A DNA stretch of 17,614 nt. It comes from a virus. Its lineage: Duplodnaviria; Heunggongvirae; Uroviricota; Caudoviricetes. Below the pieces are notes generated by a model. It ran no database searches, was not told the origin of the DNA, and saw only the letters and a program-made list of their open reading frames with translations. This document shows, in pieces, positions 6,288 through 9,844 of this stretch. Each line of letters starts with the position of its first letter. Positions within the stretch are counted from its first letter, which is position 1. Location of the stretch: positions 1 through 17,614 of the IMG/VR virus record IMGVR_UViG_2609459833_000015; one strand, 5' to 3'. Made by a program: the position numbers and the translations under genes.

Positions 6288-6487
6288 GATGGCAGCCTCC
6301 GTTGACTGTGGAAAACTTCCACCACCGGAGCTGCGAAACACACAGGTGGCAGACGTACAGGGTTCGCGTACCGGCGTCAACAGACACCGGCGAGCCTTTC
6401 GGCTCCCCTGCACACCCCACCATAATTCTGGAGTGAGGAAACGCGCGCAAAAAAACCGCTGAAGCGTCATATATCGCATTGACAATT

Positions 6488-6883
6488 TCAGGACGCCAAT
6501 CCCGGCACCCGCTTTATAAGGTGCAGAGCAGTGTAACGTCCCGAAATTGCAGAATCAATATGCTGGTGGTCCTTCACACTCAACAAAATCACGCCTGAAT
6601 TTCCACAAAGGACTAAAGCACTCATGCGGGTAGTCTTTGCGAAGATAGATAACGCGCTGTGTTTCTGGCTCCCAACGAATAACATGGACATAAAGCCCTC
6701 TTCCGTCACGAAACCAGCGGTTAAGTTCCTGCACAACTCGCCCCCCACAGTCAGGTAAAGTTCTCTGTGGTTACTTACAGCCAGGTGATTTGGTAATCTG
6801 CATTCATGCCGTAACAACAGGTGTTCAGCGACGCTGACCACCAGCTGTTGCGACAAACGGTTATTTGCCGTTAAACTATTCAT
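6488..6883 (-). CDS. Hypothetical protein
   Basis: ATG 6883 overlaps the upstream stop (ATGA); SD GGAG in TGTGGAGAAACTAACGC; no family recognised. Confidence 0.35.
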   Translation of the reverse strand: MNSLTANNRLSQQLVVSVAEHLLLRHECRLPNHLAVSNHRELYLTVGGELCRNLTAGFVTEEGFMSMLFVGSQKHSALSIFAKTTRMSALVLCGNSGVILLSVKDHQHIDSAISGRYTALHLIKRVPGLAS

Positions 6884-7772: not shown

Positions 7773-8399
7773 ATGGAAACGGTTGGTCAGCGTATAAAAG
7801 CTCTGAGAAGAGTTACCGGAACGTCCCAGAAAGAATTGGGTAAATTTTGTGGAGTAAGCGACGTTGCTGTGGGGTACTGGGAGAAAGACATCAATACCCC
7901 TGGTGGGGAGGCACTTTCGAAATTAGCGAAGTTCTTCAATACGTCAATAGATTACATTCTTTATGGTGCTGAGTTTGAAGGCAAACTCGTCACAAACATG
8001 CGCAGAGTTCCTGTAATATCGTGGGTTCAGGCTGGGCAGTTTACTGAGTGCAGGGCAGCAGAAGTGTTTAGTGAAGTGGACAAGTGGGTAGATACATCAT
8101 TAAAGATTGGTGATAACTCATTTGCATTAGAGGTTAAAGGTGACTCCATGACTAACCCTAATGGCCTCCCAACAATACCAGAAGGCGCAACAGTGATTGT
8201 AGATCCAGATGCAGAACCTCGTCATGGAAAAATAGTCATCGCTCGACTTGATGGAACAAACGAAGCTACAGTAAAAAAATTAGTCATCGATGGCCCTCAA
8301 AAGTTTTTAGTGCCATTAAATCCTCGGTATCCCAACATCCCTATCAATGGTAATTGCCTTATCATTGGTGTAGTCAAAGGAGTTCAATACGAACTCTAA
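7773..8399 (+). CDS. CI-like repressor (XRE-family HTH N-terminus, S24 LexA-like peptidase C-terminus)
   Basis: N-terminal HTH QKELGKFCGVSDVAVGYWE; C-terminal GDSM Ser-nucleophile motif and downstream Lys; 208 aa; divergent from cro-like gene. Confidence 0.85.
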   Translation: METVGQRIKALRRVTGTSQKELGKFCGVSDVAVGYWEKDINTPGGEALSKLAKFFNTSIDYILYGAEFEGKLVTNMRRVPVISWVQAGQFTECRAAEVFSEVDKWVDTSLKIGDNSFALEVKGDSMTNPNGLPTIPEGATVIVDPDAEPRHGKIVIARLDGTNEATVKKLVIDGPQKFLVPLNPRYPNIPINGNCLIIGVVKGVQYEL

Positions 8400-8605
8400 G
8401 ACCTCTCTTCTCTAACTAAGGCACCGAACTAAGAAAAGTTTGGTGTTTTCTCTTGCCATAATAACTAAGTTAAGTTAGATTTTATATCAAAGATAACGAA
8501 CAGGCAGGACGCCCACGAAGTAGCCGCCTGGGGCATATGAAGTCCAGGATGATTCGTTGAGTCATGTTGTGCCACCAGGCACTCATGTTAAAGCAGGTGT
8601 ATGAA

Positions 8606-8881
8606 ATGAAAGTCCAGATTTTAAACAATAACTGTGAAGTCGTTTGGTCATACGACATAGCCGCCCCTGTAGATCAGAGCGGCGATAGCTGGACCAATGG
8701 GAAACATCAGATTATGGCTGGAGTTGTGTTCTCTTTACGCCGTGCTTTGGAACAGGCTGAAGTATTTCCATCAGACCCTGAATGGAAATGGCCTTTTTCT
8801 ATTTGTCCAAATTCGGAGAGCACATTTCAGAAAATTGGTCAGAAAGTCGCACTCGAAGAGCATCAGCCAACTGTTTCCTGA
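8606..8881 (+). CDS. Hypothetical protein (first ORF downstream of CI)
   Basis: ATG 8606 with SD AGGTG six nt upstream; 91 aa, acidic, Trp-rich; 3' end overlaps the convergent ORF 8799..9044 by 83 bp and contains a plus-strand hairpin plus T-run. Confidence 0.35.
   Translation: MKVQILNNNCEVVWSYDIAAPVDQSGDSWTNGKHQIMAGVVFSLRRALEQAEVFPSDPEWKWPFSICPNSESTFQKIGQKVALEEHQPTVS
8764..8798 (+). terminator. Candidate intrinsic terminator (plus strand)
   Basis: ATTTCCAT (8764-8771), 10-nt loop, ATGGAAAT (8782-8789), then GGCC and TTTTT (8794-8798); AU-rich stem so likely weak. Confidence 0.3.
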
Positions 8882-9044
8882 TTTTTTCAGGTAACTCGTC
8901 GGCATCGCAGAAACAACAACGCTCGATCATGTTGAAAGCCGATTCGTAGAACTGTTTCTGCTGAGTGTCGCTGAGACAGGAAAAGAGCGACGTTACGATG
9001 ATTTTATTAATTGCATTATCAAGTTCTTTTTCATCAAAAGTCAT
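8799..9044 (-). CDS. Hypothetical protein (convergent to CI)
   Basis: ATG 9044 with SD AAGGA seven nt upstream; 81 aa with helical-looking hydrophilic composition; no family recognised. Confidence 0.4.
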   Translation of the reverse strand: MTFDEKELDNAINKIIVTSLFSCLSDTQQKQFYESAFNMIERCCFCDADELPEKIRKQLADALRVRLSDQFSEMCSPNLDK

Positions 9045-9284
9045 TTGATTTTCCTTTTATGTATACGGGCTTAAAAGGATACCACCGAGCCTGAAGTGGT
9101 GAAAAGACAGGCACATAACAGCTAAGTATTTTCAACCAAAGAGAATCCTTAGCGTTGTGGTGAATGCGGCTCAGCGCACGCGGGTTAAGGTTGAGGCTGA
9201 CAGTCGACCTTCTGTGGATACCCACCCGTCTGGTGTGCAACCTTCGCCAGGCACCGGGAGGCACCCGGCACCACAACTTTATGC

Positions 9285-9344
9285 TGTGTGTAGTCCTGGC
9301 GGTACCAGTTTGTACCCTTGCTTCCGGCTGGTACCGTCCTTTTT
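9285..9344 (+). ncRNA. DicF-like small RNA candidate ending in an intrinsic terminator
   Basis: 11-bp stem GGCGGTACCAG (9298-9308) paired with CTGGTACCGTC (9328-9338) followed by TTTTT (9340-9344); 5' arm GGCGGUACCAGUUUGUACCC closely resembles the DicF segment GGCGGUAUCAGUUUUACUCC as I recall it; 5' end not determinable. Confidence 0.45.
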
Positions 9345-9481
9345 ACAAAACAGAGAAGAGCATCACCGGACGACGGGCTCATAACCCAATCCATCCGGGC
9401 GGCAGTCACCGCAGGTGTTCTTCTCTGTTTTGTGGAGAAACTAACCGACCTTGCAGGGTCGATATGATGAGGAGCAGCAAA

Positions 9482-9844
9482 ATGGCTAGCGAACGCAGTA
9501 CTGATGTGCAGGCATTTATCGGGGAGCTGGACGGCGGCGTATTTGAAACCAAAATCGGCGCAGTTCTCAGTGAAGTCGCTTCCGGTGTGATGAACACGAA
9601 AACCAAAGGTAAGGTCTCACTCAACCTGGAAATCGAACCATTTGATGAGAACCGTGTGAAAATCAAACACAAACTCTCATATGTTCGCCCGACTAACCGC
9701 GGGAAAATTTCCGAAGAAGACACCACCGAAACGCCGATGTATGTCAATCGCGGTGGTCGCCTGACTATTCTGCAGGAAGACCAGGGACAATTACTGACTC
9801 TTGCCGGTGAACCTGACGGAAAACTCCGCGCAGCAGGTCATTAA
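9482..9844 (+). CDS. YfdP-like prophage protein
   Basis: 120 aa from ATG 9482 (SD GAGGAG 9469-9474), matching YfdP length and position upstream of YfdQ/R-like genes; alternative start ATG 9464. Confidence 0.5.
   Translation: MASERSTDVQAFIGELDGGVFETKIGAVLSEVASGVMNTKTKGKVSLNLEIEPFDENRVKIKHKLSYVRPTNRGKISEEDTTETPMYVNRGGRLTILQEDQGQLLTLAGEPDGKLRAAGH

Follow-up and report, generated by a model that had tools for sequence, protein, structure and literature searches.

A conserved three-way-junction RNA with a tRNA-like hairpin in the yfdP operon leader of a lambdoid prophage

Structured RNAs of several kinds have been described in phage operon leaders and in phage tRNA clusters. The C4 RNA of phages P1 and P7 and the CI RNA of phage P4 (RF01695, clan CL00128) are phage-encoded antisense RNAs that are embedded in a leader and consist of a long closing helix with two hairpins; they are released by processing with RNase P. 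The RNase III leader hairpins, for instance those of the lambda N leader and the T7 R sites, are irregular helices of about 20-25 bp located shortly before the first start codon, and the T7 RNase III sites have internal loops. In Stx phages, tRNA genes occupy the slot after the Q gene, behind a promoter-proximal terminator. Another cis-encoded structured RNA, the put site of phage HK022, is situated in a lambdoid early-operon leader and is composed of two adjacent stem-loops, without an enclosing helix, ahead of the terminators that are suppressed (PMC9378689). The present work deals with an RNA element found at positions 9345-9433 of a stretch of 17,614 nt from a virus of the Caudoviricetes (IMG/VR record IMGVR_UViG_2609459833_000015), hereafter the window, which is an SfV/mEp460-like lambdoid Escherichia coli prophage with 99% identity to phage SfV around orf32. 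The element lies between a small RNA (sRNA) and a yfdP-like gene, and it resembles several of these systems without fitting any of them fully.

An initial annotation of the window had pointed out a long-range inverted repeat at this place. This repeat is helix P1 of a conserved, non-coding RNA of about 90 nt on the + strand that forms a three-way junction, here called the tRNA-like element; it is a structured RNA under selection in which the helices P1, P2 and P3 all covary. The pairing of AAAACAGAGAAGAG (9347-9360) with TTCTTCTCTGTTTT (9418-9431), including one G·T pair, is indeed present, and the repeat is longer than had been claimed: its perfect part comprises 15 bp (9345-9359/9419-9433), the RNA helix 20 bp (9345-9364/9414-9433), and 25 bp are reached if the preceding U-tract is counted. 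The inverted repeat exceeds chance. It is the only perfect one of at least 14 nt within 100 nt in the 17.6-kb window, and such repeats occurred in 2 of 300 shuffled windows. The folding energy calculated by RNAfold for positions 9340-9440 is -51 kcal/mol, against -23.6 +/- 3.3 kcal/mol for dinucleotide shuffles (z = -8.25), none of the 200 shuffles being equal to it. Only one other perfect inverted repeat of 12 nt within 100 nt is found in the window (16938-16949/17021-17032), inside the last large open reading frame (ORF; 16328-17614).

The three-way junction is built, in order, by the P1 5' arm ACAAAACAGAGAAGAGCATC (9345-9364), one unpaired A, the core hairpin P2 (9366-9398; CCGGACG-AC-GGG-CUCAUAA-CCC-AAUC-CAUCCGG), the variable hairpin P3 (9399-9412; GCGG-CAGUCA-CCGC), a further unpaired A and the P1 3' arm GGTGTTCTTCTCTGTTTTGT (9414-9433). 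The conserved, single-stranded sequence GGAGAAAC (9434-9441) stands directly 3' of the helix. P2, the main inner hairpin, had been overlooked in the initial annotation, in which two sub-hairpins were proposed instead. One of them, GCGG-CAGTCA-CCGC, is borne out as P3, but the other, CACC-GCA-GGTG, is incompatible with P1 and P3 and not conserved among relatives: its GGTG is paired to CATC of the long helix in every one of the 47 aligned variants, and its CACC is freely variable. When a context of 341 nt is folded, the upstream sRNA, its terminator, the element and a downstream hairpin appear as separate modules and the fold of the element persists; the same fold is seen in divergent relatives.

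The collection of homologues beyond BLAST was anchored on the P2 sequence. Covariation was assessed in an alignment of 47 distinct variants, using a structure specified by hand that was derived from one of them. Standard pairs occupy 92.9% of the pair cells in this alignment, versus 41-54% after shifting the partners by 1-3 columns. Changes on both sides were detected at 11 of the 34 pairs (6 in P1, 2 in P2 and 3 in P3), and none of 500 shuffles matched the observed covariation. This shuffle control is generous, given the relatedness of the sequences and the origin of the structure in one of them, but the slide control and the compensatory pairs give a clear result. P1 shows compensatory changes at 6 of its 20 pairs, 95.5% of its cells are paired and no indel is present in either arm among the 47 variants. 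The lower stem of P2 covaries as well (G-C in 25, A-U in 17), and three of the four pairs of P3 show compensatory changes; in relatives the length of P3 varies between 13 and about 50 nt, and its sequence is unconstrained. Across phages of Escherichia, Salmonella, Klebsiella, Citrobacter and Pantoea, P1 and P3 drift while P2 hardly changes.

Two findings assign the RNA to the + strand: its G·U pairs (U19·G, for example, in 44 of the 47 variants) are possible on that strand only, and the covariance model derived from the alignment gives 111.5 bits there, against 42 bits on the - strand. A DNA-level site, such as a protein-binding palindrome or a cruciform, is disfavoured by these strand-specific pairs and scores and by the varying length of the insert. 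The lengths of the element (90, 91, 92, 93, 94, 113, 114 and 117 nt) differ by non-multiples of 3, indicating that it is non-coding and ruling out a coding region.

Among 5,426 complete E. coli genomes, 2,808 contain the 101-nt element, in 1-5 copies each. It is also carried by 71 phage records from six genera (Escherichia, Shigella, Salmonella, Klebsiella, Citrobacter and Pantoea) and by at least 120 IMG/VR viral contigs. A scan of genome contigs with only 14 specified bases returned 120 loci, 119 of which are chance matches. Related phages share either the left flank and the element or the element and yfdP, so that mosaic boundaries exist on either side, and the gene behind the element varies (two yfdP types, xisE in the e14 prophage, and others). 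These boundaries, together with the varying downstream gene, indicate that the element is an independent module at the level of the operon and is not gene-specific. GGAGAAAC is kept in nearly all class-A variants, whichever gene follows. A second conserved stem-loop of the leader, hairpin 2 (CGACCU-UGCA-GGGUCG; 9446-9461, + strand), recognised by its conservation and in the full-context fold, is located about 12 nt past the GGAG of GGAGAAAC in nearly all of 47 distinct downstream variants, before the ribosome-binding site of the next gene. Its stem sequences differ and covary, while the U-NGCA-G loop is kept; this hairpin could be boxB-like or a 5' stabiliser.

The P2 consensus, CCGGRYGAC-GGG-CUCAUAA-CCC-AAUCCAYCCGG, is almost invariant. 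The 14 nt of its tip (CGGGCTCATAACCC / CGGGCUCAUAACCC; 9374-9387, + strand) match exactly the anticodon stem-loop of E. coli initiator tRNA (tRNA-fMet), encoded by metZ, metW and metV, and the identity covers all three G-C pairs. P2 thus presents a seven-nucleotide loop of the anticodon type, CUCAUAA on GGG/CCC, with U33 and a purine at position 37. The loop is CUCAUAA in 106 of 132 copies, and nearly all variants retain the Y-U-N-R start, as anticodon loops and antisense recognition loops do. Since the first viral scan had forced CTCAT, three further scans were carried out, each demanding a different base at one of the 'anticodon' positions; they provided only about nine deviants (CUUAUAA, CUAAUAA and CUCCUAA). 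A P2-like hairpin of the type GAYGAC-GGG-7 nt-CCC-AAUCCAYC is also found in the 5' untranslated region of two mitovirus-like contigs (Pfam Mitovir_RNA_pol, E = 3e-85 and 6e-48), at 136-168 of L255 and 158-188 of L256, with the loops UUAGUAC and CUGAUAC; these matches may be coincidence, as about 2-3 chance hits per scan are expected for the pattern.

Klebsiella phages carry a different form of the element, which has in common with the window form only P2. In this form P1 is reduced to GGCCUG/CAGGCC (6 bp), P2 is the same, P3 is a 7-bp hairpin and the unit ends in A-CCA or G-CCA, a CCA end that is present in the Klebsiella form only. The unit starts 6 nt past the CCA of a preceding tRNA-Arg, tRNA-Asn or tRNA-Thr and closes an array of tRNA genes (Asn, Phe, Thr, Arg) that follows the Q gene. 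It constitutes an unannotated tRNA-like RNA of about 72 nt, the last one of the array, between the Q and lysis genes (L004, 1509-1580; also in L005, L017, L024, L027, L054, L058, L064, L068, L078, L098, L101 and L124). Some 80 nt and a terminator come next and could represent a further small RNA. Klebsiella phage RCIP0034 has, one after the other, the Q gene, a promoter-like site, a terminator (1310-1335), tRNA-Asn, tRNA-Arg, the element and a second terminator; in the late region of Pantoea phage PA-1, the element stands likewise between a terminator and a second one. A U-1/G+1 context, stacked helices and a CCA end are substrate determinants of RNase P, and the Klebsiella form shows them. 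The sequence CUGAUGA of this form raised the possibility of a hammerhead, which was rejected: the motif is not conserved (CGGACGA in the window) and there was no Rfam hit.

The element is tRNA-like, but it is not a tRNA. ARAGORN detected no gene, and no cloverleaf with a D arm and a T arm, either in the window or in the element of relatives; its relaxed and mitochondrial modes gave only inconsistent noise for both forms, and the Rfam tRNA model had no match to either of them at E <= 10. In the window there is no acceptor stem followed by a discriminator and CCA, the 20-bp P1 being followed by GGAGAAAC.

Upstream of the element, on the same strand, an sRNA of the STnc100/PasD family (9132-9347) ends in a DicF-like terminator. 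The Rfam STnc100 model matches with 39.5 bits (E = 8e-7), below its gathering score of 47, and a weak DicF match covers 9285-9339. The closing stem of this STnc100-like RNA is GUUGUGGUG / CACCACAAC (9154-9162/9269-9277), and its intrinsic terminator (9298-9344), recognised as an inverted repeat, is formed by GGCGGTACCAG / CTGGTACCGTC followed by TTTTT. This RNA is the counterpart of the 193-nt 'sRNA-17' described in E. coli K1 RS218, as follows from the primers of that report (PMC7719688, Table S2), which map to about 9153-9344. sRNA-17 was said there to have no Rfam homologue (PMC7719688), and an STnc100/PasD family of sRNAs has been described (bioRxiv 10.64898/2026.05.13.724894). The element is separate from the Rfam spans of its neighbour, since the matches to STnc100 and DicF extend no further than 9347 and 9339, respectively, and the flanks recombine independently. 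It begins 1 nt past the T-run of the DicF-like terminator, and its helix ends 48 nt before the yfdP-like ATG (9482), in agreement with the position given in the initial annotation. In 112 of 115 copies of the window type, P1 is preceded by a T-run at a distance of at most 14 nt. The element thus lies directly behind a promoter-proximal terminator, so RNA polymerase arrives by read-through only, and it is among the first RNAs transcribed once that terminator is read through. The yfdP-like ORF (9482-9844, + strand) is the first gene of the + strand operon and is followed by homologues of DUF2303/yfdQ and of the HD-domain yfdR. Two in-frame ATGs, at 9464 and 9467, precede the annotated one, and the ribosome-binding site GAGGAG (9469-9474) is found between them, which makes the true yfdP start ambiguous.

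The inverted repeat had been proposed to be a second terminator, an attenuator or a processing site. As an intrinsic terminator or attenuator the element is hardly credible. A strong hairpin does follow the first terminator, ahead of the first gene, and yfdP is nearly silent in the wild-type RS218 lysogen (0.5 reads) although the upstream sRNA is expressed (PMC7719688). However, no U-tract follows the helix: the T-run that had been placed after the repeat, TTTT at 9428-9431, sits within the P1 3' arm, where it is paired to AAAA, and the helix is succeeded by GGAGAAAC. Instead of a compact G+C-rich hairpin with an immediate U-tract, there is a branched fold with an A-U rich base, the T-run is not conserved (it becomes GTTGTGT in relatives) and the terminator scan does not list the element. 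In addition, the 3' end of the sRNA of RS218 is at the DicF-like terminator and not at the element (PMC7719688). In an sRNA-17 mutant, in which a cassette replaces the sRNA body, yfdP is up 95-fold, and transcription enters yfdP and yfdR when upstream transcription is raised (PMC7719688). This cassette leaves the terminator hairpin and the element intact, indicating that transcription can pass both. The element, therefore, most probably does not act as a terminator. Neither does attenuation find support in the fold, since there is no alternative or mutually exclusive pairing with the terminator and the modules fold independently. A processing site for RNase III, whose substrates have a size of about 22 bp (PMC6212723), is plausible from the dimensions of P1, which has 20 bp, can be extended to 25 and is fixed in length. 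An RNase III site alone would not account for the nearly invariant inner hairpin.

The reading that we prefer, tentatively and at somewhat less than an even chance, is that the element would be a stand-alone RNA module which, once excised, displays P2 to a conserved host partner. The RNA would be produced when the operon is read through in lytic development. In the window form, RNase III would cut within P1, which has the size of its substrates, freeing the element from the transcript, whereas in the Klebsiella form the enzymes of tRNA processing would do so. P1 and P3 could then serve as a scaffold from which P2 shows a hairpin with an anticodon-loop-like U-turn to the host partner, which might be a protein recognising the Met/fMet anticodon arm or a complementary RNA. 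Cutting of P1 would also part the constitutive upstream sRNA from the mRNA of the yfdP operon. A more specific version holds that the element and its Klebsiella relative form a new family of phage tRNA mimics without a D arm, which act as a decoy of the anticodon stem-loop of the initiator tRNA; this we regard as distinctly unlikely. According to it, the RNA made on read-through would compete for a host factor that recognises the initiator anticodon arm, candidates being a VapC-type nuclease, MetRS, TilS and the 30S P site, and the phage might in this way protect or redirect translation initiation in lytic growth. VapC of Shigella and Salmonella kills by cutting tRNA-fMet in its anticodon stem-loop (PMC4705866).

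Several observations speak against a displayed, tRNA-like module. The copy of the element in e14 of E. coli K-12 has the loop UUAAUAA and a changed internal loop, and the apparent invariance of P2 is inflated because the viral scans were anchored on the P2 sequence. A CCA tail is lacking in the window form, and tRNA finders and Rfam models recognise neither form. The identity to tRNA-fMet could stem from ancestry in a tRNA gene and not from present mimicry. No complement of the P2 loop or of the internal loop was found in the window beyond chance. Finally, the conservation of GGAGAAAC and of hairpin 2 suggests a cis-acting role in the leader that is outside the module proposed here.

That last point is the starting point for a purely cis-acting leader of the early operon, which we consider unlikely, though to be taken seriously. 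P1 would then be an RNase III site or a 5'/3' stabiliser, or else the element would be a nut- or put-like site at which a boxA-like UGCUCUU, GGAGAAAC and hairpin 2 load an antitermination factor or modify RNA polymerase, P2 being conserved through its contact with RNA polymerase, a Nus factor or another conserved component of the host. The location fits, in the leader of a long operon beside a cI/cro-type switch and, in the Pantoea and Klebsiella late operons, between two terminators; the module is retained, with hairpin 2 and GGAGAAAC co-conserved, while the first gene changes. The length of P1 suits RNase III, and most variants have in the 3' arm UGCUCUU(U/C), which we take to resemble boxA. 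However, the boxA-like stretch is locked in P1, the element comes after and not before the first terminator, and no N-like gene is fixed alongside it. The covariance model has no match in the put region of HK022, and the architecture of put, with its two side-by-side stem-loops (PMC9378689), differs. Homology to put was discarded on these grounds, there being no hit of the model in the HK022 immunity region. The Klebsiella form, with its CCA end and its place in a tRNA array, looks like a released RNA and not like a polymerase-loading site.

The architecture of the element, a long closing stem with two hairpins in an operon leader, is that of the C4 type, and a genuine C4 RNA is encoded in the same window (6342-6427, - strand). 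The element might thus be an excised antisense (immunity) RNA of the C4/CI type, whose seven-nucleotide YUNR loop, closed by G-C pairs, would engage in loop-loop kissing with a phage or host mRNA, for instance a start region with UUAUGAG. We judge this quite improbable: the models of the C4 clan gave no hit on 8400-9600 at E <= 10, while the true C4 RNA scores 65 bits, the above-mentioned search of the window provided no target box, the downstream genes vary and leave no fixed cis target, and seven nucleotides centred on CAU trivially match any AUG context. Even less probable is that the element is a relic without present function, be it what is left of a decaying phage tRNA gene or a mobile inverted-repeat element of small size. 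Such an origin could explain the 14 nt shared with tRNA-fMet, the Klebsiella relatives in tRNA arrays, the terminal inverted repeats and the decayed loop of the e14 copy, but the compensatory changes in three helices, the fixed P1 and the near-invariant P2 across six genera indicate purifying selection, and the copies, at most five per genome, have a constant prophage context and are never scattered.

Other features of the window and of related prophages deserve mention. A gene for a cI-like S24 repressor on the + strand (7773-8399) stands opposite cro- and cII-like genes of the - strand. Downstream of these cro/cII-like genes, the C4 RNA (65.1 bits, gathering score 45) is beside an isrK RNA (6449-6524, - strand; 54.3 bits, gathering score 50), and this adjacency suggests an RNA-controlled antirepressor or anti-Q module of the P1/Gifsy type. 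Between the repressor gene and the sRNA there are two overlapping ORFs without a Pfam match, 8564-8881 (+ strand, 105 aa) and 8799-9044 (- strand, 81 aa), the latter in opposite orientation to the flanking repressor gene and yfdP operon. In K-12 the element exists only as the e14 variant, an 84%-identical copy (NC_000913.3, 1201098-1201194, minus strand; 86.7 bits) that is preceded by a DicF-like terminator. Element and terminator are inside the annotated gene ymfH (b1142, 1201069-1201380), and xisE follows immediately; instead of encoding a protein, ymfH probably covers non-coding RNA elements. The dicF locus of the Qin prophage was considered as a studied homologue and set aside, because it is devoid of the element and has dicF followed by an STnc100-like segment. 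This segment (NC_000913.3; L263, 2445-2594), GUGGUGAAUGCGG ... CACCUGGAGGCACCAGGCAC, comes after dicF, so that the order of the modules is reversed with respect to the window, and the two arms of a long-range inverted repeat, GTGAATTTTGTGATG / CATCACAAAATTCAT, flank it just before dicB.

Rfam 15 gave for the element, at E <= 10, only a noise-level hairpin-ribozyme hit (E = 10), the neighbour being the STnc100/DicF-like RNA. Literature searches, including full-text searches by sequence, found no description of it, and the element is not mentioned in the portions of the STnc100/PasD report and of PMC7719688 that a search by terms covers. An RNA with strong structure and covariation, carried by about half of the complete E. 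coli genomes, thus appears to be undescribed. This matters because the STnc100/PasD/'sRNA-17' RNAs are now studied as virulence-linked regulators, and the effects of deletion or overexpression constructs at those loci, such as the 95-fold increase of yfdP, may be misread if the element is ignored. If it were a true functional mimic of tRNA-fMet, it would represent a new route by which temperate phages reach the tRNA or translation-initiation machinery of their host, or a tRNA-targeting defence. At minimum, it is a clean candidate RNA family, whose processing by RNase III and RNase P is testable.

The element resembles C4/CI RNAs, tRNAs and RNase III leader hairpins, and it fits fully into none of these classes. 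It shares with C4 and CI RNAs the phage origin, the overall design and the position in a leader; however, it has no similarity to them in sequence or by model, its window form lacks an ACC tail, and it conserves one tRNA-anticodon-like hairpin instead of two antisense loops, without a/b target boxes in the window. P1 is like the RNase III leader hairpins in its size, in its distance to the first start codon and in a central mismatch, found in 26 of the 47 variants, that is akin to the internal loops of the T7 sites, but the element carries a branched insert in which sequence, and not just pairing, is selected. It has the stable hairpin in an intergenic leader that is typical of Rho-independent terminators and differs from them in the branching, the A-U rich base, the lack of a 3' U-tract and the read-through at the homologous locus. 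As HK022 put does, it lies in a lambdoid early-operon leader without a fixed N-like gene and is conserved across phages whose hosts share RNA polymerase, put being distinguished by its two stem-loops, which are not enclosed by a helix and precede the suppressed terminators. With tRNAs it has in common the exact anticodon stem-loop of tRNA-fMet and, in the Klebsiella form, the tRNA slot, a 6-bp acceptor-like stem, a 7-bp hairpin that can be stacked on it and an RCCA end, whereas its junction is three-way and not four-way and it has no D arm or T-loop sequence. Comparable tRNA-like RNAs are the stable RNAs of phage tRNA clusters, such as species 1 and 2 of T4, and the viral tRNA-like structures.

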